Shown here: piece after piece, positions 1-61,057 of the stretch | Position numbering within the stretch: position 1 is the stretch's first letter | Layout: the number at the start of each line of letters is the position of its first letter | Origin: Elsinoe ampelina | Lineage: Eukaryota | Length of the DNA stretch: 64,000 nt | Direction of reading: 5' to 3' | NCBI GenBank assembly: GCA_010093995.1 | Contig: ML992505.1 | Coordinates: forward strand, 1,009,147-1,073,146 | Made by a program: the position numbers and the translations under genes | Notes under the pieces: model-generated | Seen by the model: only the letters and a program-made list of their open reading frames with translations | Databases searched by the model: none | Told to the model about the DNA's origin: nothing

Positions 1-1198
1 TTATTAAGCCTTTACTTAACCTCCTTAAGGGTTTATTAGTTTAGTAACTATCCTTCTAGCCTTAGATGCTTATTTAAGTAATAGTACTTGCTCTACTTAT
101 GCCGCTTCTAGTATATACATCTAGGCTCCCTAGTAGAACTAGGCTCTTTTATAGAGTCCTTAGTAGCTATAGGGAATACTATTGCTCCCTTACTAGCCTT
201 TATAGTACTATATAGCTTATAAAGTTTATAAAACTATCTAAACTTAGTAATTAGTTTAAGCATAGTTAGTAGAGTTAGTAAATCTAGATCAATAAGATAT
301 TTGTTAGTAAATGCTAGTTTAGTCCTTAAGATAGAAAGCAAGAAGTCTCTCTATAGCCTTAAGCCTTAAGCTTCTAGTAGATTATAATTCCTAGCCTTGT
401 CTATAACCTCTTCCTATTACTAAAGCTAATAGTCCATGTTCTATAATAATAGACTAGAGAGCTATCTCCTCTAGAGAGCTTTAACCTTAAGCTGAATTAT
501 AGCATTAGATAGTACAAATCTGTTCTTTAATGCTCTAAGGATAGCCTATAGATAGGGATCTCCCTCTAGTTAGATAACTATAAGAACTTATAGTGCAATT
601 AATAACTAAATAAGGCTAGCTAGATCTACTAAGGCCTTATACTGTTTGTTATACTAAGCTTACTTCTCCTTATAGATCTAGAAGAGTGCTAAGAAGTTAG
701 GATCTAATATATCTAGCCTCTAAGGCTTAGGGAGCCCTTTAGGCTTAATACTCTCCTAAGGATTAATAAGGTGCTAGATCTTAGTATTTAAAGCTCTAGT
801 CTTAATAATATATAGCTAGCTAGCCTATTTAGCTAATGTAGTAAGAATGATAGGTGTTCTAGCTGTTAGTGTGTTAGTATCTATAGTTATTTATCTCTTT
901 ATTAACATCTGAATTCTATAGTAGTAGATAAGGCAGTACTTAACAGATTCTAGTACTTAAAAAGCGAGATAATAGAGAATGAACTAATAAATCGAGTAGA
1001 GAAGCCACTAAATAATATACTTATATAGGGGTAGTTATACCGGGCTTATAACTGTTAACTTGTGTATAGGGAGGGAAAGAGATTTATTACTGCCTAATCC
1101 ACCCAAATTAGGTGGATTGTAACTATATATATACTTAACCTAATGAACTAAGAGATAGCTAAATTAGAAGAACTCCTTAATGGTAATAGAATAAGACA
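1..1198 (-). mobile_element. RIP-degraded Ty1/Copia LTR retrotransposon, 5' end (LTR, PBS, gag); continues off the left edge
   Basis: Minus strand: putative LTR TGTCTT...TTAACA (~1198-1053), followed directly by GTTATAAGCCC (RIP form of the GTTATGAGCCC PBS-like motif of fungal Copia). A gag-like frame starts ~885 (TPIILTT..W..WLYIIKTRA..IW..INP after reversing TAG). Strong TpA excess and CpA/TpG depletion. Confidence 0.7.
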
Positions 1199-2074: not shown

Positions 2075-4818
2075 ATGGACATTCGAAATAATCTTCGGCG
2101 CATGTTAGGGCGTTCGAAGGAAGTCAAGAAACATAACATCTCGGCCAAAACTATCAGTCCAAAAGCAAAACCAGAAGCAGTCAACACCGTTTCCGCCCGT
2201 CTTCCTTCTTCTGCGGCCTCATTACTGCATGGGGAAACCGCCGATCATCCACCTCGTCCCATCTCATCTCCCTCAACTTCTTCAACTGTAGCCACAAATG
2301 ACCAACTCGACCACTCGACCGACGATAATTCTTCCGAGTCGATAAGAGACAAGCAGAGTACAGACGATACGAGCTTGGAAGACATTGCATCTCCACCGCC
2401 GGCCAAGGAGCTTGCGGTAGACGGAGTTTCAGAAGCTGGATTGGCCTCTTCGGAGGACATCCCAACCCAAGAGGACTCTGTACGGGAAGAGCTGGACTCT
2501 GCCTCACATCCCGAAGTAGTCGTTCAGCAGCCGACTCCACCGCCCCAGAATGAGAATATCCTACCGGCTCCGCCAGATCCGTCAATCGCGCAACAGATAG
2601 CAGCGAGCAGGTACGACACCCTTCTTTCTTTACATTCCTCGCGGCATACTCGGGACGCAAACTACATGACCTAGGCACTGCAAATGCGCAATCAGTCCAC
2701 ACGTCAAATTGCTATACTGCACTGCGTCTTTGGCTACCATTGTCGTAACTACCACTAACATTGCGTGATAGTTTCGATTCGATCCAGTCAACGGCAGTCT
2801 CTAGCTATACCCATCCATCGCCCGCACAATCCAATCCTTCCATCGCTCGGATACAAGCAGAAGCAGAACCGCGACGACAATCCCTAGTCTCCAATTCAAA
2901 CGTCCCAGAAATCCAGCAGATCCTCACCGGCTCCGACACATCCGTGAACCAGATCACATCTCCTGCAAGTCTTACGGCACATTCCTCGCACTCCGGCAGT
3001 CATACAGGAAGTCTAGCAGCCATGCTGACCCGAAAGATTTGGGTCAAGCGACCTGGCGCATCTGCGACCTTGGTGGCAATAAGAGAGGATGACTTGGTGG
3101 ACGATGCGCGCGATAAGATTCTTACAAAATACTCAAACTCATTGGGTAGAACGTATGATTCTCCGGATGTAACACTCCGGATATCCGCAAGGTCAGATGG
3201 TCCAAGATCACAACCGCAGGAAAGGTTACTTGGACCCGAAGAGGACTTGTGCAGAGTACTGGATTCATACTATCCAGGTGGTCAGATGGTAACGGAAGCC
3301 CTCATCATTGATATCCCGCCAAAGAAGACTCCACGACCATCGCCAAGGCATCAATACCACAATAGTAATGGTCACAACAACTATCACTCTCTGGAAGAGT
3401 TTCGACCGCATGAGTCCGGCACAGATTACTTTCCACCAATGCCAGCTGTCGTACAGACAGTAAATGGCCAGACCGCGACCATACACGATCCACGGACGGG
3501 TCATGCTCAGGTCCTTCAACTTCCAGATCATACCCGATCAATCTCTGTACTGCAAACGGGCCAGGTCCCTCCACTTCCATCACCCGGCGCAGCAACCCGC
3601 CGGCATCGACCGAAATACGCAAGGCAACACACCTCTTCGCCGACAATCATGGCTCATCCGACTAATGCAGCTGCAGTCGCCGCACTGAACTCCCCTAATC
3701 CTATCGGCCAACATGTGCCGCTTCGCAACAATCTCGTCCGACCACGTCATGATTCCAATGCTTCAGAAAGGCCAAATGGAGTGCCACCAGCTCCACCTCT
3801 TCCCACTCCACCCGCGCCAGAAGCAGCGCCGACTGCAAAGACTGGCTCGACTCCTCCCACTCCGGTTCCGCGCGATCACCATCGTGTGCCTCGCCCTCGT
3901 AAGACTAGGAAAGTGACGCCCACGAATGGCACAGCGACGGTGAAGCCATCCGCTCTCTCATCTCTGCTAGACGGCAGTGTCCCACCCATCAATGTCCTCA
4001 TTGTAGAAGACAATATCATCAACCTGAAGCTTCTCGAGGCGTTTATGAAGCGCCTCAAGGTCCGCTGGTCGACTGCCATGAACGGCCAAATCGCCGTCAA
4101 CAAATGGCGGACAGGCGGCTTCCATCTAGTTCTCATGGATATCCAACTCCCCATCATGTCCGGTCTCGACGCCACGAAGGAGATCCGCCGGCTAGAGCGT
4201 GTCAACGGAATTGGTGTCTTCAGCAATTCCCAGCCCGGCACGCCCAATCGCGGCGTGAAGAGGGAGGAGACAAATGGCAGCACGGAAAGCGACGGGACAA
4301 TCACCGAGACGCCCGGAACAGAAGAAGAGCGCGACGAAGAACGCCGCCGCCAAGAGCGCGAAAAGGATCGACTGGTCATGGACGAGGGTCTTTTCAAGTC
4401 CCCTGTGATCATCGTGGCTTTGACAGCCAGCAGTCTGCAAAGCGACAGGCACGAAGCGCTGGCAGCGGGATGCAACGATTTCTTGACAAAGGTATGTCCC
4501 TTGCTTCCCTGTCCCTTGCCCTGATTCCATACTGACTTTTTCCGTGTCCAGCCCGTCAACTTTGTCTGGCTAGAACGAAAAGTCAAAGAATGGGGCTGCA
4601 TGCAGGCTCTAATCGACTTTGATGGGTGGCGCAAATGGAAGGATTTTTCGAGCGAGAAAGTCGATGCTGTGGCTGTGGACAAGAAGGGTGGGGATGGGGT
4701 TAGTAAGGCTGATTTGGAGAAGAAGGCGAAGGAGAAGAAGAGGGGGAGGGAGAAGGAGAGAGAGAGGGAGAAGAGGGTGAGTTTGGAGTTGGGGAGGGGG
4801 GGTTTGGAGGGCCAGTAG
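2075..4818 (+). CDS. SSK1: HOG-pathway response regulator Ssk1/SskA (3 exons: 2075-2610, 2772-4491, 4552-4818)
   Basis: RKIWVKRPGASATLV domain. Receiver domain PPINVLIVEDNIINLKLL...LMDIQLP...ALTASSLQSDRHEALAAGCNDFLTK|PVNFVWLERKVKEWGCMQALIDFDGWRKWK. GT-AG introns with CTAAC/CTGAC branch sites keep the frame. Confidence 0.95.
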
Positions 4819-33481: not shown

Positions 33482-34035
33482 GTTGCCAGTCACAGCCAGC
33501 TTTCAAGGCGCGCGCCTTGTCCCTGACAGTTTTCTTTGTCGTAATCTTCGACGTGGTATGCAGAAGCCCACAATCCTTCGCAAGTTCGCCAACGTAATCT
33601 GCTCACATACAAGCAAGACCATCCTTTGCGTGATGATAGACGTGCTGTGCCGTGAGACTGTCTCGGGTATCCTGCCATTGGCTCCAAGTTCTCATGCCGA
33701 GCAGCGCAATCTGACCTTTCCAGACTGCGACCAGAGCTGGTCAATAGTGGATGCCATGTGAAACCTCAGCTTGCTATCTTGTTTCCTCCAGGCACGGCGC
33801 CGCCAATTCCTCCCTGGGGATCCATTGCGTGTCGGCCACACAGCAGCTCGATTGAGAGCACGTGCAATGTGCGGAACTGTGATTCGTATGAGGTGGCGTT
33901 ACAGTGCAAAGTCGCCTAATGTCAGTGTTGGTGCCTGACGGGTTTTGTGGGGCAATGAAGTTGTTGCTGCAGGTTCAAAACTACAGTACAGTCAAATTCG
34001 CTTCAAACGAGCCACCCAGTCTTGGCGCGGAACCA

Positions 34036-35512
34036 AAAAAAGGTCTTACGACTTTTTGCCGGGGGGGGGGGGCCCGGGGGAGAATTTGCCACCCGCTTTT
34101 ATATTGACAATAACGTACTAATTATACGTAGTATATAGAAGATCTATATATCGTTAGATTCGTCTTAAAGAGCTCTATCTAGTAATATAAAGTTTAGATC
34201 AAGAAACGTTATATCTAGCTAAGTAGGTTTACTAGTAAAACTCTGTCATTTTTCTCTACCTAGCTCTTTACTTACTATATAAAGGTTTATAGTATATATA
34301 GCCTATATAGAAGGCTAGTTTAGAAGCTATACTTGGAGCGCGTACTAGCTATATAGCCTAATATAGCTTATAGACAGTCCTAAAGGTGTTAGAAGAGTAA
34401 ATACTAGGATTTACCTAGGGTGGTCGAGTGGGTTAATACTATACTCTTTAGAGTATAGTAATTACAACGTGACTTTTCGTGAAATTTTTGTGTTTTTTGA
34501 TGTTTTTACGTGTATTAGTAAGCTCCTTTTATAATCTAAAGTATTTTTTCTATACTATAAAAAAATCTACATTTTTTGGTACTACTTTCGCTTACGTAAT
34601 CCTAGATCCTGATTTTTAGAAGAAGAAAGAAATTTGAAATCACTACTAAAAATCAGGATCTAAGATTACGTAAGCGAAAATAGTACTAAAAAATGCAGAA
34701 TTTTTGATGGTATAGACAAAATATCTTTATTAGTAAAATACGCTTACTAATGCACGTTAAAATATCAAAAAACACAAAAATTTCACGAAAAGTTATATTG
34801 TAATTACTATACTCTAAAGAGTATAGTATTAACCCACTTAACCACTCTAGATTTACCCCTCTTAGGCTAGTATAGGAGCTATAGAATAATTAAAGATATA
34901 TAAAATATATATATAGGTAGCTAATAAGTAGTACTAGAAGTATATATAGGCTATAGCTTAGTAGAAGCTTAGTTTAAATACTTATAATAATATAGAATTT
35001 ACTAGTAAAATATACTATTTTAAAAGAGCTTCTACTAAGCTAAAGCCTATACGCGCTTCTAGTACTACTTATTAGCTACCTATAGATATATTCTATATAT
35101 CTCTAGCTACTCTATAGCTTATATACTAGTCTAAGAGGAGTAAATTCTAAAAATATCTCTTCTACTACTTATAGCGCCTTTTATAAGCTATATTAGGCTA
35201 TATAGCTAGTACACGCTCCGAGTATAGCTTCTAAACTAGCCTTCTATATAGGCTATATATACTATAAACCTCTATATAGTAAGTAAAGAGCTAGGTAGAG
35301 AAAAATAACAGAGTTTTACTAGTAAACCTACTTAGCTAGATATAACATTTCTTACTCTAAACCTTATATTACTAGATAGAGCTCTTTAAGACAAATCTAA
35401 CAATATATAGATCTTCTATATACTATATATAGTTAGTACATTATTGTTAATATAAAACCGAGTAGTAAATTCTCCTTCTACTTTATAAAAAAGTTATAAA
35501 ATCTTATTTTAG
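34036..35512. mobile_element. Non-autonomous foldback element: ~500-bp inverted arms, ~57-bp loop, left arm interrupted by a MITE
   Basis: 34036-34415 plus 34858-34969 is the reverse complement of ~35027-35512 (e.g. ggagaatttgccacccg vs cgagtagtaaattctcc). Differences are mostly transitions. Confidence 0.8.
34416..34849. mobile_element. hAT-type MITE, 434 bp, ~200-bp TIRs, 8-bp TSD GATTTACC
   Basis: TSD at 34408-34415 and 34850-34857. Ends TAGGGTGG...CCACTCTA. Arms 34416-34619 and 34646-34849 are inverted copies. Confidence 0.85.
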
Positions 35513-35515
35513 AGC

Positions 35516-35688
35516 AGGGGAGAGAAATTTGCTACTCGGTTTTATATTAGCGATAGTACGCTAATTAGGCACTAGATATAGAAGATCTATAGATTGTTAG
35601 ATTTGTCTAAAAAAGCTCTATCTAGTAATATAAGGTTTAGAGTAAGAAATGCTAGATCTAGCCTAGTAGGTTTACTAGTAAAACTCTA
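35516..35688 (+). repeat. Third, truncated copy of the foldback arm
   Basis: ggggagagaaatttgctactcggttttatatt...tactagtaaaactct matches 34076-34245. It is cut by the Gypsy LTR at ~35689. Confidence 0.8.
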
Positions 35689-38600
35689 TTTAATACGAGA
35701 TAGATACAAACTAGATTTAGTTAGAATTTAGTTTAGATTAGTTATATAATCTTAGTATTATAGCTTAGACTTCTAGCTACTTTACTCTTAATATTATATA
35801 TACTTTATATACTAGCTTTCTTCTTCTTCTTCTAAGTCTTAATATTTTAATAAATAGACGTAATTAACCTCTTATCTTACTAGTTATAATTACTATATCG
35901 AGACTTCGAAACAACTACGACTAAGTAATAGAGCTATTAAATTATCTAGTTATTCTACTACTTATATAACTACTAATAACTACTACTTATAAAGAACTAA
36001 AGAATTAAAGAAGAAGCTATTATAACTATAGTTCCTATATATACTATAATAGATCCTCGCTACTACTATATAAGTTAATACTATAAACCTTAAAGATATA
36101 AGAAGAAGATAATAAGTTAAGTTATAGATAACTCTTAAAGAAAGTAGGCTACTAGCTAAAATTTTTAATATTCTCTTTATTATATATTAACTTTTTATAC
36201 TATTTATTTATAACTAACTACGCTAAGTATAGCTTACTCTAACTATAGTAAAGACAATTATTATATAAGTAAGATTCCTCTACCTCTTACTAATAATAAT
36301 AATAAACTAGTTTAATTATTCTATTATAACCTTATTTACCTTAATAACTCTAACCTAAAGAAGAGATTATAAGAGTTAGATAATATAATTACTCTATATA
36401 AGGCCTTTATCTTTATTAAGTCTATCTATAATAAATAGGTTACTATATATAACTTAGTATATTTCGATACTCTTAATCTATATAACTAGTTAAATAATAT
36501 TCTTATTAAACTAGATATAGCTAATAGTACTACTAATAATCTTACTACCTAAGCTACGCGCTACCTTACTAATATTAGTAAACTTAAAACCGAACTAGCC
36601 TAGCTAAGAGCCGAGATAGAATATACTATACTAGCCTCTTCTATACGTAGCGTTATATTATTAGAGAAGATACTAGACTCTACTATCTTCTCTAGTAGTA
36701 CTCTAGAATAGTTTAAGGTCTTTAAATATTAAATAAAGAATAAGATATATACTAACGCTAACTACTTTTCTACTAAGGCTATCTAGTTTACTTACTTATA
36801 GTTATACCTCTCTAGTAAAGTATATACTCTTATTATAGATACTACTAGTAATAATACTATTAGTATCGATAAGACTTTTACTCTCCTAGCCTAATACTTT
36901 AAGGACTCTAACTATAAGGCTATAGTATATACTTAGTTCGCTAGTCTCTTCTAGTATAATACCTTCTTTAACTTCTTTATTAGTAAGTTTAATAAGTATG
37001 TCTTTTATACTAAGATTACTAAAGATAAATAGCTTTACTAGCTTTAGTAGAAGATATCTAGTAAGCTACGTACTACCCTTATTAACTTTAATACTAATAG
37101 CCTCTTTACCTTTATTATAAAGACTTATACTACTAATTATAATATCTAGTAGAGTAACCTTATTACTAAGTATACCTAGGCTTTATACTCTAGCCTAGCT
37201 ATAAGCTACGCTACTACTACTTCTACTTATATATCTTATTCTACCTTTATACCTACTACTCTAGCTACCTTTTACTCTATTACTAGAGGCGCTCTATAGC
37301 CTTTCTATCTAACTTAGGCACTTACCTACTATATATATAGTAAACCTAGCTATATCTCTACTAAGTGTATAGCTAGTACTTTAGAGAAGACTACTTACGC
37401 CGCTATATACTCTATATATATTAGTACTATAGAGAAGATATAGTAGCTCTAGAATTGCTTAACTAAGTTAAGTAACTAAGTTAATACTAGTTCGGCTTAT
37501 AAACTAGATCTAATTTAGCCTTAGTTTAACCCCGAAATAGACTATAAACCTACTAGTTTCTCTAGCTAGAGAAATAAGTAGCTAGAGAATAAGTTCTATT
37601 CTCTAGTAGAATAAAAGTAATTTAAGATAGATCTAGAGGTATATACTTAATAAATAGCGTTATTAGCTACTATATCTCTACTATTATAACTTCTATTACT
37701 ATTTGTAATCTCTATAACCGCTCGCGTACTATTATACTTTAAGCCTTTATTAATACTAGCGCGCTTATTAGCGCTATAGTTAATTATAACATCCTTAATA
37801 AGCTAAAGAGCTTTAGCTACTCTATAGTACTAGCTAGTCCTATTTAGCTTTAAGCCTATAATAGTGTTCTAATAGAGTAAGTTATATATAGTATTTCCCT
37901 TACTACTACTATTTCTAGTAAGCTAAATAACCTTACTACCTTTCGTATTATAGATATTAGCTAATTTAATATTATTCTTAGCCTTAGCTAGCTTAAGGCT
38001 AATAGGGCTACTATTAACTATAAGTATAGCTAAGTTATATATAAAGAAGAGTTTTCGCTAATAGTTATTAAGTAGAAGCTACTATAGCTAATTAAAAGGC
38101 TAGAATCTAGATCTAAGCTAGGCTTAGATCTAGAAATCTAGCTTAGTAAAGCTACCGTTCTAGTTTAGAATTAGTTCGGTCCTAGTTTAATATATAAACT
38201 AGTATAACTATTAGGGTAGGGTTAGCCCCTTTAGGTTTAGTACCGCACTAGAGTTTAGGTCGGCCTCTAGCCGGCGTAGTACCGCTAAGGGCTTAGTAGT
38301 ACTAGTACTAGCTCTACACCGTAGCTATAATAGTACTACACTAGTACTAGGTATAGGTCGAGTCGTATATATTCTAGACGTAGTATAGTACTAGGTTAGG
38401 TTAGTAGATAAGTAGTATAGTGCTATTAAGTCCTTAGCGTACCCTTACTAGTACTATACTAGAGTTACTATTCTTATAGTAAATTCTTATAGTAACTACT
38501 ATATTCTATAACTCTTATTACTTTTCCGCTCTAAACGCTTAAAGTTATAGTAGGTAAAGGATACTAGAGAGAAGTAAAAGTTATTAATTATTAACTCTTA

Positions 38601-40059
38601 TATATAATTACGACCTAATAGTAATTTGTAGAAGATTAACCTAATTAACATTATCTATATAACCCCTACGAGCCTATTTTATATACTTAGCTAGTAAGCT
38701 ATATACTACCTAGAACTAATACCTTATTATCTTATTATCTACTTTATCCGGAGGATATTCTATTCTTAGTAAGTTTACCCTTATATAAATTATAACTCTT
38801 AACTAGTAAACTAGAGTACTAAAGCTATTAGGCAGAGTCTAAGACTAGAATAATTAGTTCTAGGTAGTTTAGCCTTTCTACTAACTTATAGTATAGTTAC
38901 GAATTACCTTAATACTATTAGATTACTAGTTAATAGTAAGTATAAGGCCGTCTAGGGCCTTAATCTCTACTTAAAGGTTATTAATAAATTTATAGTAAGT
39001 AATATTAGCCTAACAAATAATAGAGAGGCAAGTAGTAGACATAGTAGTAGATTTGCTTAAATTCTAGTAACTATTAGTATAAGTTATACTATAGTAACGT
39101 AAAGGTATACTAGATAGTTATTTAAATGTTTCTAAGGAGAGAAAGAAGTAACTTAGCTAATAATCTACTTATATTCCTTAGTATAATAATAGCTATTATT
39201 CGATAATAGCTATTATTAGTATTATTGTTTTTTTATAATAGATAATAGCTATTATCTATATTATTGTTCTTATAATAGGTAATGCTAGATATATATACCT
39301 TTTAGTTACTATTTCTTCTTCTTCCTCTTAAACCTCTCTTTCTTGTCGTTTAATACCTTCTTCTATAATGTCTCCTTCTTATGCTTAACTCTACTCTAAC
39401 CTAGTAGATCTAATTCCCTTTTAGCCTTATAAGACAACTCCTAGTAACTACGCTAGGCCCTTATACCTACGTTAGTATAAAGCCTATATCCGCCGTATAA
39501 CTCTTATATATCTTAACTTTAATAACAACTACAAAATCTAAGCTAAATATATCTATAATAACTATAGAGGTTCGGTACTTCGCTATAAAGCCTACTATAC
39601 TTACGATACTCCTTACGACTTTATAGGTATTTCTAATCTAATCTTTCTCTATAATCTAACGAATATTAGTATAATATCTTATAGACTAATAATATCTTCG
39701 ACCTAATCGACATATAGCGTACTATTAATTGTCTTATTCTTAATAGAAGAGTAGATCTACTCTTACTCTTTACTATATACTATAATATTAAACGTAAGTA
39801 GGAGAAGTTAGATTACGTTAATAATAGTAATAATAGTGTTTCTTCCGATAACTAATCTAATTAAGGTAGCATAGTTAAAGCGTTAGCGGGCTAATAGCTT
39901 TAGATAGTTATTAATAATATAGACTTACACTTTATAAAGACTTAATTGCGTTACCTCTTCCTATAAGTAACTAAAATTAACTATAACAATAGCGTATATA
40001 AGCTCTTAAAGTAGAAGTATTTATATTACCTCTAGCTATACTAGTAGTTATATTACTAC

Positions 40060-40460
40060 CCTAGGTAGCACTATTAGTACTAGCGGTAGAAGTATCTCCC
40101 TCGTTATTCTCTTTACTATTAGTATTATTCTAGAAAGTAACCTAACTATTATTAGGCTTAAACCTAGTAAGGAAGTTAGAAGTATAATAAGGTAGATATT
40201 AGTAATAGCGTAGAGAGTAGCATTAGTAATAAGTTAGCTAAGGTCGTAGGTACTATAGTAGAGATAGTTATCAAGGTTAATAATAAGAAAAGTAGCGCAG
40301 AGATTAGTTATAGCTTTAGCCTTTATATTATAGTTAATCTATATAATTTCCTTATTAATGTTTTTATAAGCGGATCTAGTATAACTAATATAGATACAAA
40401 TATAGTTATATTAAAGATACTAGCGAGTAAGGGAATAAGCTTCCTTAAGGTAGCTAACAA
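40060..40460 (-). pseudogene. Captured DEAD-box RNA helicase-like fragments (Ded1-related) inside the hAT element
   Basis: De-RIP readings Y.KEA..LARQYL..D...I.IGRAGSAHENV...WV...K..A..DL (~40300-40455) and PDFL..FKPDDGQV.F.DDTDGEE....WG (~40060-40185). Confidence 0.45.
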
Positions 40461-40601
40461 AGAGAGACTATTAGTATTAGTAGGTAGAATTATATATAGT
40501 AATAGGGAAGATATACGCGGAAGTACTTTAGAGTAAGTATTAGTATAGATACTATAAGAGCATTATTGCTCGGAGGCTATTAACTAGATACGCTTAGAAT
40601 A

Positions 40602-43160
40602 CTAGCCTCTAACCTTAGTAACGTTATATAGTAGATCTTCGTCCTTATTATACTCTTCTTCCTTGTTAACCTCTTTATTACTTAAACTATAGGTAGTAAT
40701 ATCTCTAAAGTTATTACTTATACTATCTATTCTACTATTAGTATTATTATTAGCGGTAGTAAAATTATCTATCTTAGCCGATTAGATGTTTTAAAGATTA
40801 TTTTCTACTAGCTTAGAGACTATAATTTATTAAATTATCTACGGAAGTAGTCTATACCTTCGATTACTAATAACATTCTTTACTATATTAAAAACATATT
40901 TAATACCTACACTAGCGATTAGTATTATAAGAACATTACGAGTAATACAAGCTAGTTATAGAAATAAGTACTTATTTTCTTTCTACTAAGAAAGAATATT
41001 AAATTCTAATATTTCCTATATAGGCGGAGTCCTAAGGTAATTCTCCTCTTCTATCCTCGTTATATAGATATTACTCTACCCTTACGAAAGTGTATTATCT
41101 TAGCTAGATACTAAAGGTATAAAGCTACTTCCTATATTTAATAAGGAAGGCTTCTTAAACTAGTAAGTAATAGATAAGGCTAGTAGAGGAGGTAGGAGAG
41201 TAGTTTAAGAAGAGTAGTTATTATTATAGCGATTAAGGTAGTTAAGGAACTATTTATAGTAAAGCGATTTAAAATGTAGTTCCTATAAAGTATACTTATA
41301 TATACTAAGTTTCTAAGTTAGATCTAAGATTATGCTATAATTAAATAGGAAACTTTAACCTCTACTTATTCGCTTATAATACTTAGAAAGCTTAGTATAA
41401 CTAGCTTTTACTACATTTTATATAACTAATAGCTAGTCTAAGTTATTATTCTCTTCCTAAGTAGACTTAACTATATTAAGGAAGTTAAAAAGAGTATTAT
41501 ATATAAGCTATATATATTGTACTAATAGCGTATAAGACTAACTTAGCTAGTTAGTTACATTCTTAAAATTCTCTAGTATTCGGACGACAATCTTTAGATA
41601 TACCTATTTAGTATAGCCGAGGTAAAGGCGTTTTATATCTACGCGATCGATAGATACTATATCTTAATTAGCTAGCGCTTTATTAGTTTAGGGCTTATAT
41701 ATAATTATAATCTCTATATTAAGCTATTTGTCGATAATTAGTTAAAGTTTAATAGCTCGCTTATATATATTATACGTCGAGTTCTAATAGGTATAAACGT
41801 CCTAAACGACTAAGAGTTATTTACAAGGAGGTAGATATACTTAAAGGGATTTAAAGTATTAGTAGCGTTAAGGGGATTAGTTAATTATAATACAAATCGT
41901 ATAGAGCTTTAAAATTAGTTAAAAAACTATAAGAAAGAACTATAAGAAATATAACTTACTTTATAGAGGGAATTTAGAACTAATAGAGTTATTTAGATAT
42001 TATAGAGATACTACTTCTCGAGCTTATTAGCTTTCTTATTGTCCTTAGTAGTTTTTAGCTATAGAGCTTAAATAATATCTTATATAATAAGATTAATTAT
42101 ATAGGCTAGATATAGAATTATATTTTCGATAGAGGACTAGTATATACTCTTCTTCTTAAGACCTTATTATATTTTAGATTATAGAGTATTATTATTACTT
42201 ATATTATTCGCTATAATAGCGAGAAGATATATATTAATCTTTTTTTTATTTAGAACTCTTAGTAGTTCTATACTAAGCGTAACTCTAGTATACCGTCTAC
42301 TAATTAGTATAAAATCTAGTAGGTACTTACGTACTTACTAGTTATTGTTAATATAGTATACCTTTATAGCTATAAAACTTAGATAGTTATTTATAGACTA
42401 GCTGTCTAGTATAATTAAAACTTTTATCTAACTACTAAGATTAGTAAGAAGATTAGACTAAATGTCCTTATAGTGCTCTTTTAATAGCCCTAAGGCTTAC
42501 GTCCGACCTAGAATATTAATATATAGCTAGAGGAAATTTATAAATTAGAGAAAGGAGAAATTATTAACTATTCGGAATAACTAATTATAATTAATAAGGA
42601 CCTTAATAAGCTCTTTTTTAAATTATTCTAGGGAGAATTATAGTATATAGGATATAGTACTAGTAGCATTTACTTTTAATTACGTTAGAGCTATCTAAGC
42701 TACTAATTATTTATAGCTAGGAGATTTTATATTCTAGTAGCTTTAGCATCCGAGATGTTTTATTAGGTGTTTATTACTAATTAAGTTCGTTATTAGGTAT
42801 TATAAAGCTCTACTATAGCAGAGATAATACATAAGAGGTGTTCTATTAGTAAGCTTAGTACCTTTATTAAAGTTAGCCTAAATAACTCTATAGCGAGTTA
42901 TAGAATTCTAGTTTAGTAGGTTTTGTATTTCGCTAACTCTTAATTTACTACCTATTAATGTTATAGGCTACTATGTTTTTTAGGCTTATATAGCTAGCTA
43001 TTCTTTAAGTAGTATATCTAGTTAGTAGAGTAGATAGCTAATAATTTTAATAGTTTTATAGAATTAAGTAGAGGATAGATTATTCTAGTAATTAATATAG
43101 AACTCTTTAAGCTTGTAAGGGAGAGGTAGTAGTAGTATAATAACTTCTAAGAGTATCTAT
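40602..43160 (-). pseudogene. hAT transposase (BED finger, DDE, hATC dimerisation domain), RIP-inactivated
   Basis: De-RIP motifs YCLC...H....KHL (~42800), LDSWS (~42405), AITADNASNN (~42200), QDV.TRWNSTY.M..RAI.L (~41790), KAGY.KLSKYY (~41395), ILSWWKEN...FP.LA..ARDVL.IP.AGVG.ER.F (~40880-41000). Confidence 0.9.
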
Positions 43161-43299
43161 AGTTAAGAATCGATCGAGTCTTTATTAAATACTAACATTT
43201 TAAGAGTAGAGATATAGAATATTACTAGCTATATAATAAGGAGTAGAAGACTATAAGAATACTCTATAAGAATCCGTTAGCTACTCTTAATTTATAGAT

Positions 43300-44660
43300 T
43301 AAAAATTTTTTAATAGTATAGAACTAGAAAGCTACTAAAACTATAGTCTAATTTTCCTAACTTAAGGTTAATCTATTTATTCTTATCTATATTGTCCTTA
43401 CCTTTACTCTCCTTATTATTATTATTACTCTTATCTATTACCTTATTATTATCTTTATTCTAATTCTCTTTATTAGAATTATTAAAGTCCTTAGTAGTAA
43501 CTACCTTATAGTATATTTTAGCTACTTTCTTAGTCTTATACTTGTTAGGTTTCTTATTAAGGAGGTTCTTAATCTTAGAGTTATTCTTAACTTCTTCTTT
43601 AACCTTATTATTACTATACTTAATATAGTAATTATTAGATTTAAGTAAAATATTATTATTCTTATACTTAAATTCTAATTCAAAAGTAGGTTTATATTTG
43701 CTTTAATAGATTAGTATATAACTATAAGAAACAACTATAAGAAATAATATATACTTAATTATCTACCTATACTACTTAGAGTTTAGTAGGTATTATATTC
43801 TTAATAAACTTCTTAAACTTAGCTTAGTTACTATCGTTATAGTTACTAGTATTATATAGTAAGTTAACGCTATTATAGTAGATCTTATAGGTCTATTTCT
43901 TAAGAATTCTACTAGTACTAAGAAGACGTTTTACTTAGTAATTTAGAAATATATTTATCTCGTTATAGAGCACCTTCTTTATATAATTAGCAAGGAGTTA
44001 CTTATAGTAAAGAAGAGTATTAGCTTTATAAATACTACTCTATTTTTAGTAGATAGATATAAACTTATCCTCTAACTATTCCCCTATATAGAATTAGTAG
44101 ATATACTATAAGAATATACTATAAGAAATATACTACTCTACTAGGTATAATAGCAAGTCTCTACTATCTTCTTATATACTATATTAAAGGTAACTTCTTT
44201 CTCCTTATCGAATATTACTTAAAATTTCTTAGAGTTTTTAAGTTTTACCTTAAATATATATTTTATAGAGTAATTAGTATTACTAGTAGTAGTAAGGGCT
44301 TTCTCTTCTATACTAGCTTATATAGCGTAATCTCTTTACTAAATAGCTTACTAGGTATTACTAAGCTATACTTTCTACTATAGAATTCTAAGGGGGCAGC
44401 TATAGTAAGAAGTTCTAGTATTCTAAAAGCGATTTTTAATCTAGTATTTAATCTTATTAGCCTCGGAATTAAAACTCTATAGTCTAGTTAGTATTTAACT
44501 ATAAGAAGTATCTATAAGAATTACTTCTATTATAGCAAGAATTACTTCCTTTTTCTTAGTTATTTCTTTAGTCTTAATTACTAAAGTATTAGTTATCTCT
44601 TTCTCTTTACTAAAGGTTTACTAATCTATAGAATTAGTAGATATTATAGATTAAGAATTA
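43300..44660 (-). pseudogene. Unknown intron-containing gene with acidic C-terminal tract, inside the hAT element
   Basis: Long codon-like frames separated by CTAAY...TAG intron-like ends. The C-terminus reads as N/K runs, consistent with RIP-converted D/E (43380-43500). Boundaries approximate. Confidence 0.4.
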
Positions 44661-45020
44661 GTAGTAATTTATAAGAGAAGGTAGAATATTAAGTATAATA
44701 GGGAGCGAGATATAAGATATAAGTTTTATAAGAAGAAGATAAGGAGAAAAGGATTTAGTATTCCTTATACGTATAGTAAATAGAGTAGCTAGAAATATAA
44801 GTAATAATAGGTATTAATCCTATTATTATACTAATATAAAGTTGTTAATATTATTAATATAAAGTCGTTATAGTAGAGAATAACAATATAAAATTTATAT
44901 TCTATATACTATTATAAATTCCTTAATAAGGCTTAATATCTTACTCTTAGTATTTTCGCCTTACTCTTCTTTACCTTTATAAACAAATTTTAACAATTAA
45001 TTTAATAAATTTATATAGCT

Positions 45021-45602
45021 ATAGCTCGTAAGAAGCAAGTAACACCTCTAAAAAGAGTAAAGCTAAGAAAGTAAGGCGCTAAGAAAACTACTACTAAAAA
45101 GCCTACTATAGGTAGTTACGTAATAAAATTTAGACTAGCATTAACTAGATAAATTCGCTAGGCGAAGAGCTATAGGTTTAAGCTAGGTAGTTAATTTCTT
45201 ATAGTAAATTCTTATAGTCTTATATCTAATATAGTATAGCTATTACTCTCTAAGAGATTTATTACTACTAGAAGATAACTAAACTTCTTATATATAAGCT
45301 TCTCTTCTCCTATGTTATTTATAACATTACGTAAGATATTAAGTTAACGCTTATAAATAGAGATTTACGCTTTACGCTAGATACTATTAAGTATCTCTAG
45401 GAAGTAAGTAAGATAATACTAGTAGAATATTTCGAAGGTATATTAACTATATATTTAGAATATATAATACCTTATACTAACAACTATAGTAGACTATAAT
45501 CTTAACACTATCTATACTAAGTATTATACTATTATATAGAAAGACTCTTAGCTTACTAGAAAATATTATAATAAGTACTACCTACTTACTTTCTCTAATT
45601 AG
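45021..45602 (+). pseudogene. Histone H3-like gene inside the hAT element (introns 45190-45239 and 45438-45492), RIP-inactivated
   Basis: De-RIP: MARKKQ...KPRKQ...[35 protein letters not shown].QDI......DLRFT..AI..LQEASE..LVEYFE|D.NLNAIHAKR.TIMQKDSQLARK. Collinear with the H3 histone fold. Confidence 0.9.
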
Positions 45603-46362
45603 TAAGACCTCTCCTCTATAATACTATAAGAATAGACTATAAGAAATAGGTAGGTTTATTTTTATATAGACTAGACTATTAAATTTCCTTTCTATAGACT
45701 TATTATAATACTAAAGTATAGTATAGTAGCTATAGTCGCCTTAAAGCCTAACTAAGGTATAGTACTATAACGTAGTATAATACTAGGATTTAACCCTAGT
45801 ACTAATTCGATATAGTACTATCGTAGTATAGTATAGCGCTATTATAGTATAGTGCTATTCTTACTTAACTACGGTGTAGTACTAGTGCTAGTATAGCTCG
45901 GCGTAGTACTAGTACTAGTACTAATATAGTAAAGTACGGAGCTAGTACTATTTAGTTTAGCACTAGGTGCCGACCCGCTAAGAATAGCTCTATACTAGCA
46001 CTAGAGTCGGCCTTCGGCCGCCCTAACTCTACTCTAATAGTTATACTAATATAAACTAGGTTCTAGCTTAGCTACTAAGATAGAGCGAACTAGACTATAT
46101 TAACTACTAGCTCTTAGGTTGAACTTTAAGCTAAATTAGAAAGAGTTTAAGCTAATCTCCTATAGTACTTAGTTAATATATAAGTTCTTCTATATACTTA
46201 CCTACGTAAGTAATACTAAGTAAGAAGAGCTAACTATTACTTTTATTAGCGCTACTACCTTCGTATTAGTAGCTAAATACTAAGAGAATAAGGTGTTTAT
46301 AATCTTAGTAAAGAATATTAAAGATTACTACTAAATAGCTTTTAAGCTAGAACTAGACTCTA

Positions 46363-49223
46363 TATAATACAAGATAGATGCGAACTAGATTTAGTTAGGA
46401 TATAGTTTAGATTAGTTACGTAATCTTAGCATTATAGCTCGAGCTTCTAGCTGCTTTGCTCTCGATATTATATATGCTTTATATACTAGTTTTCTTCTTC
46501 TTTTTCTAAGTCTTAATATCTTAATAAATAGACGTAATTAACCTCTTTTATCTTACTAGTTGTAATTACTATATCGAGACTTTAAAACAACTACGACTAA
46601 GCGATAGAGCTATTAAACTATCTAGTTATTCTACTACTTACGTAACTACTAATAACTACTACTTATAAAGAATTAAAGAATTAAAGAAGAAGCTATTATA
46701 ACTATAGTTCCCGCGTATACTATAATAGATTCTCGCTACTGCTATATAGGTTAATACTATAAACCTTAAAGATATAAGAAGAAGGTAATAAGTCGACTTA
46801 TAGACGACTCTTAAAGAAAGTAGACTACTAGCTAAAAATTTTAATATTCCCTTTATTACGCGCTAATGTTTTATACTGTTTTATTTATAACTAACTATAC
46901 TAAGTATAGCTTAATCTAACTATAGCGACGAAGAGCGCTACTAAAGTAAGCTACCTTAACCTATCCCTAATAATAATAATACTTCTATCTACTCTCTCTA
47001 CTATAATCTTTTTACTCTCTCTAATACTATACTCCTTAAGAAGCTATAGGAAGAGTATAGTATATAGGCACTAAGAGATATATTTAACTATATTAAGTTC
47101 TTCTATAATAAGTAAACTATATAGATAAAAGACACTTATATCGATACTCTCTACTATTACTATAAGTTAAATACTACTTAGGCCTAGCTTAGTAACCTCT
47201 AATCCGAACTAGATATATCTTAGTTCTATACTAACGGCGTTACTACCTAAGCTACTCGCTACCTAGATAAAATCTAAAAGCTTAAGGCTAAGGTAAATTA
47301 ACTAAGAAACGAGATAGAGTATAGTATACTAGCTCTTTCTATACGCGGCCTTACCTTATTAGAAAAGATACTAGACCTTACTATCTTTAGCATAGGTACA
47401 CTAGAGTAGTTCGAGGTCTTTAAGTACTAGATAAGAAATAAGATACGTACTAATATAGATTGTTTCTCTATAAGAGATACCTAGTTTACCTATCTATACT
47501 TATATCTCTCTAGAGAAGCTTATATCCTTATTATAGACTTAGCTAGTAATAATGTTATTAGTGTTAAAGAGGTTCTTACTCTTCTAGCCTAGCGCTTCGA
47601 GGATCCTAACTATAGGGCTACTATATATACTTAGTTCGCTAACCTCTTCTAGCGTAATAGTATATTTAACTCCTTTATTAGCAAGTTTAATAAGTACGCC
47701 CTTTACGCTAAGATTACTAAAGAGGAGTAGCTATACTAGATCTATTAGAAGATATTTAACAAGCTACGTAATACTTTAGTTAACTACGACACTAATAACC
47801 TTACTACCTTTATTACTAAGACCTACGCTACTAACTATAATATCTAATAGAACAATCTTATTACTAAGTATACTTAGGCTTTGTATTCTATGCTAGCTAT
47901 AAGCTACGCCGCTATTATACTTACTTATATACCTTATTCTACCTTCGTACCTATAGCTTTACCTACCTTCTACTCTATTACCGGAGGTACTCTATAGCCT
48001 TTCTATTTAGCTCTAGCACTTACCTATTATATATGTAGTAAGCCTAGACATATCTCTACTAAGTGTATAGCTAGCGCCTTAGAGAAGGCTACTTACGCCG
48101 CTATATGCCCTATATATATTAGCGCCGTAGAGGAGATATAGTAGCTTTAGAATCGCTTAGCTAAATTAAGTAACTAAGTTAATACTAGTTCGGCTTATAA
48201 ACTAGATCTAGTTTAGCTCTAGTTCGACCCTAAAATAAATCATAAGTCTACTAACCTATCTAGCTAGAGAAATAAGTAGCTAAAGAACAAGTCTTATTCT
48301 TTAGTAGAATAAGGGCAATTCGAGATAGATCCGGAGGTATATAGTTACTAAATAGCGTTATTAGCTACTATATCCCCGCTATTATAACTCCTATTACTAT
48401 TTACGATCTCTATAACCGCTCCTATACTATTATACTCTAAGCTTTTATTAATACTAGCGCACTTATTAGCGCCGTAGTTAATTATAATGTTCTTAATAAG
48501 CTAAAGACCTTCGGCTACTCTATAGTACTTACTAGCCCTATTTAACTTTAGGCCTATAATAGAGTTCTAATAGAATAAGTTACTTATAGTATCTCTCTTA
48601 CTACTACTATCTCTAGTAAGCTAAATACCCTTACTACCTTTCGTATTATAGATATTAGCTAATTCGACATTATCCTTAGCCTTAGCTAGCTTAAGGCTAA
48701 CAAGGCTACTATCGATTATAAATATAGCTAAGTTATATATAAAGAAGAGCTTTTACTAGTCGTTATTAAGTAGAAGCTACTATAGCTAATTAAAAGGCTA
48801 GGATCTAGATCTAAGCCCGGCTTAGATCTAGGAATCTAGCTTAGTATAGCTACTACTCTAGTTCGGAACTAGTTCGGTTCTAGTTTAACTTATAAACTAG
48901 GTTCTAGCTCGGCCGCCGAGATAGAATAAACTAGACTATATCGACTACTAGCTCTTAGGTTAAACTTTAAGCTAAATTAGAGAGAGTTTAAGCTAATCTC
49001 CTATAGCACTTAGTTAATATATAAGTTCTTCTATATACTTACCTACGTAAGTAACACTAAGTAAGAAGAGCTAACTATTACTTTTATTAGCGCTACTACC
49101 TTCGTATTAGTAGCTAAATACTAAAAGAATAAGGTGTTTATAATCTTAGTAAAGAATATTAAGGACTACTACTAAATAGCCTCTAAACTAGAACTAGACT
49201 CTATAGTAGTTCTCCTAGAGAAG
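46363..49223 (+). mobile_element. RIP-degraded Ty3/Gypsy copy 2 (same family as copy 1), truncated before RT
   Basis: Starts tataatacaagatag (TGTAATAC-like LTR start). Collinear with 35689-38199 plus 46057-46362, with the same gag, Zn knuckle and protease motifs. Lacks the hAT insertion. Confidence 0.82.
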
Positions 49224-60857: not shown

Positions 60858-61057
60858 AGCTAGCAGGGAACAGCTAGTAGTTTATTACGTCGAACTAACA
60901 ATTTCTTAGTTCTCTCTCTTAAAGTTTAAAGATAACTTAAAATTTTAACCTAACTATAGCTAGTAGAGGACAGCTAGTAGTTTATTACGTCGAACTAACA
61001 ATGTCTTAGTCCTCTCTCTCAAAGTTTAAGAATGACCTAAAATTTTAACCTAACTAG
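60858..61057. repeat. 100-bp tandem duplication
   Basis: cagctagtagtttattacgtcgaactaacaat...aattttaacctaacta at 60871 and 60971. Confidence 0.9.

Follow-up and report, generated by a model that had tools for sequence, protein, structure and literature searches.

Histone H3 genes borne by hAT transposons have been described in fungi before, and our literature search on this subject returned only two papers, PMC3538342 and PMC6710886. Manning et al. 2013 reported in Pyrenophora tritici-repentis (Ptr) a hAT element of 5.6 kb with an H3-like gene (H3L; PMC3538342), which is cited as the first fungal case of transduplication (PMC6710886). Dhillon et al. 2019 considered the Ptr event to be recent, independent, and transcript-derived, with other sampled Pleosporales lacking it, and described intronless H3 copies, killed through RIP (repeat-induced point mutation), in 9.5-kb hAT elements of six Mycosphaerellaceae; these authors found no similarity between the Mycosphaerellaceae consensus sequences and the Ptr element (PMC6710886). 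Here, we analyzed a stretch of 64,000 nucleotides from Elsinoe ampelina (contig ML992505.1, positions 1,009,147 to 1,073,146 of the forward strand; hereafter, the window). The element at positions 38200-46048 of the window is very probably, at about 0.87 by our estimate, a full-length and RIP-killed copy of the three-gene hAT of the Ptr lineage, with a transposase, a central gene, and a divergent H3L.

The limits of the element were established from its termini and from its host sequence. The terminal inverted repeats (TIRs) agree at 24 of 26 bases, with G/A at both mismatches, and are bordered by a target-site duplication (TSD) of 8 bp (Table 1). The flank to the left of the element (37200-38199) aligns with 47898-48897 at 86% identity and the flank to the right (46050-46364) with 48891-49205 at 93%, and both alignments overlap in the neighboring repeat unit by exactly 8 bp (TTATAAAC). 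The TIRs, the 8-bp duplication, and the overlap at the empty site demonstrate a genuine insertion of 7,849 bp, made by cut-and-paste insertion of a copy into a repeat unit, which created the duplication. The host of the insertion (35683-49205) is a repeat with a unit spacing of ~2.84 kb, one unit being occupied by the element and the following one retaining the empty site. A first-pass annotation of this DNA, made from the sequence alone, had proposed a 7.85-kb element with TIRs, an 8-bp TSD, and an empty site, and the TIR match, the flank alignments, and the 8-bp overlap bear this out. Its label "Gypsy" for the host repeat was not confirmed, as Pfam gave nothing at E ≤ 0.01 on the host-repeat flanks (34000-38191 and 46057-49000).

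The window divides into a genic, GC-rich part at ~1-34 kb, where GC is near 0.52, and a remainder that is AT-rich (34-64 kb; GC 0.23-0.36), and the element, with a GC of 0.27, sits in the latter. Its RIP indices were 1.83 for TpA/ApT and 0.12 for (CpA+TpG)/(ApC+GpT), compared to 0.58 and 1.24 in the GC-rich block of the window. These values are a RIP signature, in agreement with the RIP damage noted in the first pass. All three genes are full of stop codons that arose by C-to-T or G-to-A changes, and the copy is inert.

Stops in the RIPped translations were read as X for Pfam and for later searches. In one of the six frames, Pfam identified the dimerization domain Dimer_Tnp_hAT (PF05699) at approximately 41048-40818 on the minus strand (27.3 bits vs a cut-off of 21.4; E = 3.2e-6). 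Searching 1.84 billion representative sequences with the transposase in HMMER (phmmer) gave 80 matches at E ≤ 0.001, 14 at E ≤ 1e-10, and 2 at E ≤ 1e-30 (best, 4.1e-45), and no homologue emerged among 3,398 candidates when the RIPped transposase was used in a word-based search. By tblastn, residues 91-402 and 417-623 of the longest match (P0003; 723 aa) were placed at 42907-41957 and 41909-41298 in two frames, and the frame change between them is explained by the 53-nt GT..AG intron at 41959-41907. Profiles built from intact relatives of the element, described below, covered the transposase from 42910 to 40809 in four segments (E = 7e-19, 3.5e-33, 1e-41, and 1e-24). The E-values of these profiles, as of those for the central open reading frame (ORF) and for H3L, refer to the six translated frames of the element region only and, the search space being so small, we take collinearity to be the stronger argument. 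An 8-bp TSD, 26-bp TIRs, and a Dimer_Tnp_hAT domain together mark the element as a hAT. Thus, of the complete hAT carrying an H3-like and a second gene that had been proposed, both ends and the remains of all genes were recovered, the transposase on the strength of the domain score and the profile coverage, but the "helicase-like fragments" were not, since none of the frames matched a helicase family, whether at E ≤ 1 or at E ≤ 10.

The H3L of the window comprises 158 codons, with the reading frame kept over two GT..AG introns, no frameshift, 7 internal stops, and the ATG changed to ATA. The Pfam family Histone matched the plus strand below threshold (~45245-45436; E = 0.19), and exon 2 matched 156 H3 sequences of the PDB at E ≤ 1 (best, 3e-4), with H3 residues ~47-105 aligned and five extra residues in loop 1. 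Profiles from intact relatives matched exon 2 at E = 4e-6 and exon 3 at E = 1.8e-6. The PDB matches and the in-frame exons confirm a two-intron H3-like gene, and intron 1 lies at PG|T, a position that the first-pass annotation had given as common in fungal H3 genes.

When metagenome contigs were scanned with an alignment of four transposase relatives, 264 pattern matches were obtained, of which 6 were confirmed as loci. Those named L002, L003, L005, and L006 lie on intact, non-RIPped contigs of 5.9-6.5 kb, L002 being complete from TIR to TIR and L005 and L006 being the same element; L001 and L004 are cut off. The gene order in these four loci is H3L (minus), a multi-exon central ORF (plus), and transposase (plus), of which the window element is the mirror image, its orientation being equal to that of the Ptr consensus (Ptr_cons). 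Dimer_Tnp_hAT was found in an intact relative at E = 9.9e-20. A C-x2-C ... H-x4-H pattern, which may represent an N-terminal BED-type zinc finger, was seen by eye in the transposase ORF of L003, where Pfam gave no match, and its counterpart in the window is blurred by RIP.

The H3Ls of the window, L002, L003, L006, and Ptr have derived residues in common (Table S10, PMC3538342). These are E-D-C-N-x-N-A-I-H, where canonical H3 and CenH3 have [ED]-[TA]-N-L-C-A-I-H, and K-D-[SA]-x-L-A..Y-[YF], where both have K-D-I-Q-L-A-R-R (Table S10, PMC3538342). The window reads D-Y-N-L-N, K-D-S-stop-L-T-R-K-Y-Y, and L-V-E-Y-F-E, and every departure from the H3L residues (including L-V-G-[YF]) is a RIP-type transition. 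In addition, the H3Ls have P-F-[SA]-R vs P-F-Q-R in canonical H3; in the same table, the CenH3s of Ptr and S. nodorum have P-F-Q-R and that of N. crassa has P-F-A-R, so this motif sets H3L apart from canonical H3 and not from CenH3 (Table S10, PMC3538342).

The least derived H3L, that of L006, matched H3.3 at E = 1.6e-40 and keeps the tail start A-R-T-K-Q; Pfam Histone was found in the intact relatives at 1.5e-26 (L006) and 6.6e-14 (L003). The H3.3 match and the tail start, together with the PDB ranking, point to an origin of H3L from canonical H3. Among the elements, the H3L tails vary from ~26 to 60 residues and differ in sequence, having diverged in both respects after that origin. When the H3L exon of L003 was used in a word-based search, 105 of 634 candidates matched, and most of the matches were CenH3 (51-58% identity); the H3L residues were absent from all 10 sequences fetched from this search, and no Pyrenophora was among the matches listed. 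What H3L has in common with canonical H3 and CenH3 is the histone fold aligning with H3 residues ~47-105, whereas it differs from them in the tail and the alpha-3/C-terminal residues and, from canonical H3, also in the alpha-1 Q-to-S/A change. The window H3L shows neither the invariant tail and alpha-3 residues of H3 nor the hallmarks of CenH3. Judged by these residues, H3L is an H3 paralogue of its own kind, and Manning et al. also assigned it to neither canonical H3 nor CenH3 (PMC3538342).

The second gene that had been suspected in the element is homologous to the central ORF of the intact relatives, whose profiles matched at E = 1.8e-11 (44473-44144), 0.036, a weak match (43949-43764), and 1.7e-6 (43663-43520). 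Scoring of 8,000 candidates with the central ORF alignment revealed 4 homologous proteins, with E-values from 1e-76 to 2e-44; three of them carry species names, namely Alternaria panax, Bipolaris sorokiniana ND90Pr, and Alternaria arborescens. The gene is conserved, with 40-47% identity and invariant blocks, and the protein has a conserved K-G-R-P stretch and an acidic tail. Pfam had no family for the central ORF of the intact relatives or for the central protein P0188, and gave only sub-threshold matches to DUF7891 (0.13) and YKL023C-A (0.65) in the window at 43300-45000. The AlphaFold model of P0188 is all-helical, with a mean predicted local distance difference test (pLDDT) score of 71.6 and a predicted template modeling (pTM) score of 0.43; with this model, Foldseek found no match at E ≤ 0.001 and VIA-align only generic helical hairpins (Z ≤ 7.2). 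A complex prediction of central protein residues 70-275 with H3L residues 40-112 scored 0.18, against a mark of 0.34. P0188 is the annotated homologue in Bipolaris sorokiniana ND90Pr, where it is found on 7 contigs; B. sorokiniana is listed among the species without H3 amplification (PMC6710886), and relatives of the element may have been overlooked there.

The element also contains a paired 9-nt motif. CTATAAGAA occurs 17 times in the window vs 2.5 expected, and the element holds 16 of these occurrences, which form eight pairs at a spacing of exactly 13 bp, compared to 0.29 exact pairs expected in the window, where no further pair was found even with three mismatches allowed. When the motif is read as TTCTTATAG, the pairs in the introns and untranslated regions of the three genes follow the direction of transcription and one pair per element end reads inward (Table 1). 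The motif of the unmutated relatives is TTATCACAG, with 19 copies in L003 vs 0.25 expected and in the same kinds of places, and Ptr_cons has it too (Additional file 2, PMC6710886). Between TTCTTATAG and TTATCACAG, one position shows a difference not attributable to RIP, present in 16 of 16 copies, which suggests either that a reader co-evolves with the element or that the introns evolve in concert. A literature search found nothing on the paired motif, TTATCACAG combined with transposon giving unrelated primer matches only.

One design is common to introns of the three unrelated genes, and it is lacking in H3L intron 2 of the window, L003, L002, L006, and Ptr. The motif-bearing introns come and go. 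Both H3L introns are at the same sites in L002 and L003, and intron 1 is missing from L005/L006 (L006 H3L, 359-694, minus strand); L003 and Ptr_cons have a second transposase intron, after Q-K-L-T-A-Y-E, which the window lacks (near 41295-41276). Because H3L intron 1 has a motif pair inside and is absent from L005/L006, it may have been gained or remodeled within the element, and the contention of the first-pass annotation that the introns imply capture at the DNA level is uncertain. At one end of L006 (86-140) and L005 (479-533), the motif occurs not as a pair but as a tandem run of four to five copies with 13-bp spacing. The ends of L002, L003, L005, and Ptr_cons also have subterminal G-rich repeats, GGGTTGGGGTT and variants, resembling telomere repeats, and TTAGGGTAGGGTTAG in the window may be their RIPped form.

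Compared to the window element, the Ptr element has a transposase, a central ORF, and a divergent H3L in the same order and orientation (Ptr_cons, PMC6710886), and the same derived H3L residues, the H3L coding sequence of Table S10 being present in Ptr_cons. Likewise, its H3L intron 1 lies at G|T with a motif pair and its intron 2 in the E|D codon without one, motif pairs of the same kind are found in three central-gene introns and two transposase introns of Ptr_cons, its TIR begins with TA, and G-rich repeats are subterminal. It differs in length (~5.6 kb vs the 7.85 kb of the RIP-dead window element with its ~2 kb of extra sequence) and in the motif (TTATCACAG vs TTCTTATAG); the window element lacks the second transposase intron and its H3L loop 1 is longer by 5 residues. 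Gene content and order, derived H3L residues, a central ORF homologue, and the paired motif were therefore all found in the window as in the Ptr type.

The first-pass annotation had left two explanations side by side, an independent capture and a widespread hAT lineage with its own histone. In the former, an unrelated hAT would have taken a host H3 gene, introns included, by transduplication, which could account for the two introns with intron 1 at PG|T and for window TIRs unlike those of Ptr and the metagenome loci, and would parallel the treatment in print of the Ptr and Mycosphaerellaceae events as independent (PMC6710886). However, E-D-C-N-x-N, K-D-S-x-L-A..Y-Y, and L-V-G-Y-F-E are common to the window, Ptr, and metagenome H3Ls and are not those of canonical H3, the central gene and transposase are also homologous and collinear, and the element's own motif pair lies inside H3L intron 1. 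The shared derived residues and the collinear homologous genes in effect rule out an independent capture, to which we give next to no credence. A widespread lineage with its own histone is what the intact relatives, which share the H3L residues and keep the three genes in one order, bear out. This comparison shows H3L and the central gene as, in all probability, ancestral and conserved parts of the lineage, with no private capture.

We also considered whether the window element belongs with the Mycosphaerellaceae H3-hAT elements (Pseudocercospora fijiensis and five others) rather than with the Ptr type. Like the window element, these are amplified, lie in AT-rich blocks, have been destroyed by RIP, and are bordered by 8-bp duplications; both are long (7.85 vs 9.5 kb) and have TIRs that begin with TAG (PMC6710886). 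In contrast, their H3 copies, one or two per 9.5-kb element, are intronless and taken as captured transcripts, and the P. fijiensis element is described with DUF659 and no detectable dimerization domain (PMC6710886), whereas the window has a single H3L with two introns, a Dimer_Tnp_hAT match, and no DUF659 at E ≤ 1. The first bases of Pfi_cons and Czm_cons are also unlike the window TIR, and all 11 exact occurrences of TTATCACAG or its complement in the supplement of PMC6710886 fall in Ptr_cons. Membership in the Mycosphaerellaceae type is thus very improbable, and the Ptr lineage remains our preferred assignment.

Between intact elements, the H3Ls had a proportion of synonymous differences (pS) of 0.69-0.83, which is saturated, and a proportion of nonsynonymous differences (pN) of 0.25-0.34. 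The ratio of nonsynonymous to synonymous substitution rates (dN/dS) of the cargo, a check that the first-pass annotation had proposed, could be obtained for H3L in the 2 of 3 pairs with computable dS and was 0.13-0.17. H3L therefore looks to be under selection. These values bear on a second form of the same-lineage reading, in which H3L and the central gene would be neutral hitch-hikers, useless to the element. Both the length and the sequence of the N-terminal tail differ greatly from one H3L to another, and the fragments transduplicated by plant transposons are mostly non-functional (PMC3538342), both of which such passengers would lead one to expect. Against this, the H3L frame is intact in three distinct intact elements (L002, L003, and L006), as it is in 24 of the 26 copies from Ptr (Table S10, PMC3538342), expressed sequence tags (ESTs) of the Ptr H3L have been reported (PMC3538342), dN/dS is low despite saturated synonymous sites, and the central gene keeps its invariant blocks. 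We consider neutral passengers unlikely and retain the reading with conserved parts. As in transduplication by plant DNA transposons (Pack-MULE-like), a host-type gene lies between TIRs and is amplified with the element, but the H3L cargo differs in being a whole intron-bearing gene that is constrained and kept across divergent elements. In this respect, H3L behaves less like a captured fragment than like one of the transposon's core genes.

In a DNA run of organism A (X1), 6,070 short contigs fitted the element at ≥80% (80-100% identity), covering 30 of 30 bins including those of H3L. By identity, 1,681 of these contigs were at least 99% identical, 1,879 between 95% and 99%, 1,973 between 90% and 95%, and 537 below 90%, and the differences fell at 433 transition places vs 8 transversion places. 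Half of the sampled words were found in this run. Contig depth does not equal copy number; nevertheless, the element occurs in its entirety, with H3L, in many diverged versions, and the family is multicopy in the source organism, as the first pass had deduced from the RIP damage. The coverage of the H3 segment, which was like that of the rest of the element in the organism A run, also disposes of the possibility that the H3 gene is a one-off rearrangement. In two runs of organism B, which carries a second species label, 29 of 30 bins were covered. Some organism B contigs join 43714/43716 to 44496, omitting the ~780 bp between two motif-bearing central-gene introns, a junction reminiscent of the short form of the Ptr element, a recombinant of 2.3 kb that has been described.

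Between the transposase and the left subterminal region, ~2 kb of the element (38500-40500) is extra sequence. It was covered by organism A contigs as in the rest of the element, and the one bin uncovered in organism B (40060-40354) falls within it. Pfam gave no match there, tblastx and blastn detected no significant similarity to the loci or to other parts of the window, and a search for a nested TIR and TSD pair produced 0 candidates. Elsewhere in the AT-rich block, 60858-61057 is a tandem repeat of two 100-bp copies that are 89% identical.

Table 1. Features of the hAT element and its insertion site (window positions).
Feature	Position	Strand	Remarks
Target-site duplication, left copy	38192-38199	.	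8 bp, ATATAAAC
Left terminal inverted repeat	38200-38225	+	26 bp, begins TAG; reads TAGTATAACTATTAGGGTAGGGTTAG
Motif pair, left subterminal	38471-38492	+	TTCTTATAG N4 TTCTTATAG, inward; matches L003 pair after transposase stop codon
Extra sequence	38500-40500	.	~2 kb, RIPped; between transposase 3′ end and left subterminal region
hAT transposase remains	40809-42910	-	Pfam, phmmer, tblastn, and profile matches; 62 in-frame stops in 683 codons
Transposase intron	41959-41907	-	53 nt, GT..AG; with motif pair
Motif pair, transposase intron	41927-41948		
Motif pair, between central gene and transposase	43251-43272	-	Upstream of transposase, sense; L003 equivalent 3098-3118
Central ORF remains	43520-44524	-	Profile matches 44473-44144, 43949-43764, 43663-43520
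Central-gene introns	44524-44477, 44136-44084, 43754-43701	-	GT..AG with CTAAY; motif pair in each
Motif pairs, three central-gene introns	43722-43743, 44106-44127, 44499-44520		
H3L	45021-45602	+	Exons 45021-45189, 45240-45437, 45493-45602
H3L intron 1	45190-45239	+	With motif pair; phase 1, in Thr codon after P-G (PG|T)
Motif pair, H3L intron 1	45196-45217		
H3L intron 2	45438-45492	+	Without motif pair; phase 1, in Asp codon after F-E
Motif pair, right subterminal	45624-45645	-	Inward
Right terminal inverted repeat	46023-46048	-	Reverse complement compared with left end
Target-site duplication, right copy	46049-46056	.	ATATAAAC
Empty target site	48890-48897	.	Uninterrupted, TTATAAAC; next unit of host repeat

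Several observations weigh against assigning the window element to the Ptr lineage, or limit what the assignment says. The raw identity of the transposase with its relatives is about 35-38%, a divergence inflated by RIP, and the middle exon of the central gene is matched weakly (E = 0.036). The element is ~2 kb longer than any intact relative, and the extra part is unexplained and has no counterpart in them. The window TIR, TAGTATAAC.. / TAGTATAACTATTAGGG.., departs from the form TA[CG]GCTGG[CT]AAA of L002, L003, L005, and Ptr_cons, so the window copy represents a distinct subfamily. Ptr_cons and the Ptr H3L were compared by eye from the supplement text and not by a computed alignment. The term "widespread" stands on few independent lineages. 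Lastly, dS is saturated, which makes the dN/dS values rough, and the functions considered below for H3L and the central protein are inferred from conservation.

H3L and the central protein would serve the transposon, given that both remain intact and under constraint in elements that have diverged to saturation at synonymous sites. The transposase would work as in other hATs, with the BED finger binding subterminal DNA, the RNase-H-like DDE core cutting, and the C-terminal domain dimerizing, and the paired 9-nt motif would be read by an element-encoded factor. In solved nucleosomes, the alpha-3/C-terminal residues of H3 build the H3-H3′ interface. As a working guess, H3L could form distinct H3L-H4 nucleosome cores, since its alpha-3/C-terminal residues changed alike in every member and its N-terminal tail was free to vary. 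A bolder and rather doubtful extension is that this is an old, widespread Dothideomycete lineage with a chromatin module of its own, consisting of an H3 paralogue, a partner protein, and a 9-nt address motif. Such a module would combine an H3L with a remodeled H3-H3′ interface and a free-running tail, a helical, acidic partner protein with an AT-hook-like K-G-R-P motif, and a paired address motif in the introns and untranslated regions of every gene and at both ends. The element might then package or mark its own DNA, or the donor and target sites, and this could aid escape from H3K9-based silencing, or transposition.

The window copy itself is an inert fossil, which contributes a RIP-degraded subfamily, and RIP-degraded copies of such kind escape scans of annotated protein sets. 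Taken together, the window element, the intact contigs, and the homologues of the central gene from Alternaria and Bipolaris do not fit a private and recent event in Ptr, and suggest that what was published as a "recent capture" is a histone long borne by a transposon. It seems that a single lineage has maintained constraint on an H3 paralogue and a partner gene over a time sufficient for synonymous sites to become saturated. If the chromatin-module reading were true, the "first transduplication in fungi" would concern a core gene of a transposon and not a recent capture. The interest therefore lies less in this fossil than in an apparently old, conserved lineage with a histone, a partner gene, and an intron-borne motif, and in the question of why a cut-and-paste transposon would have a histone of its own.

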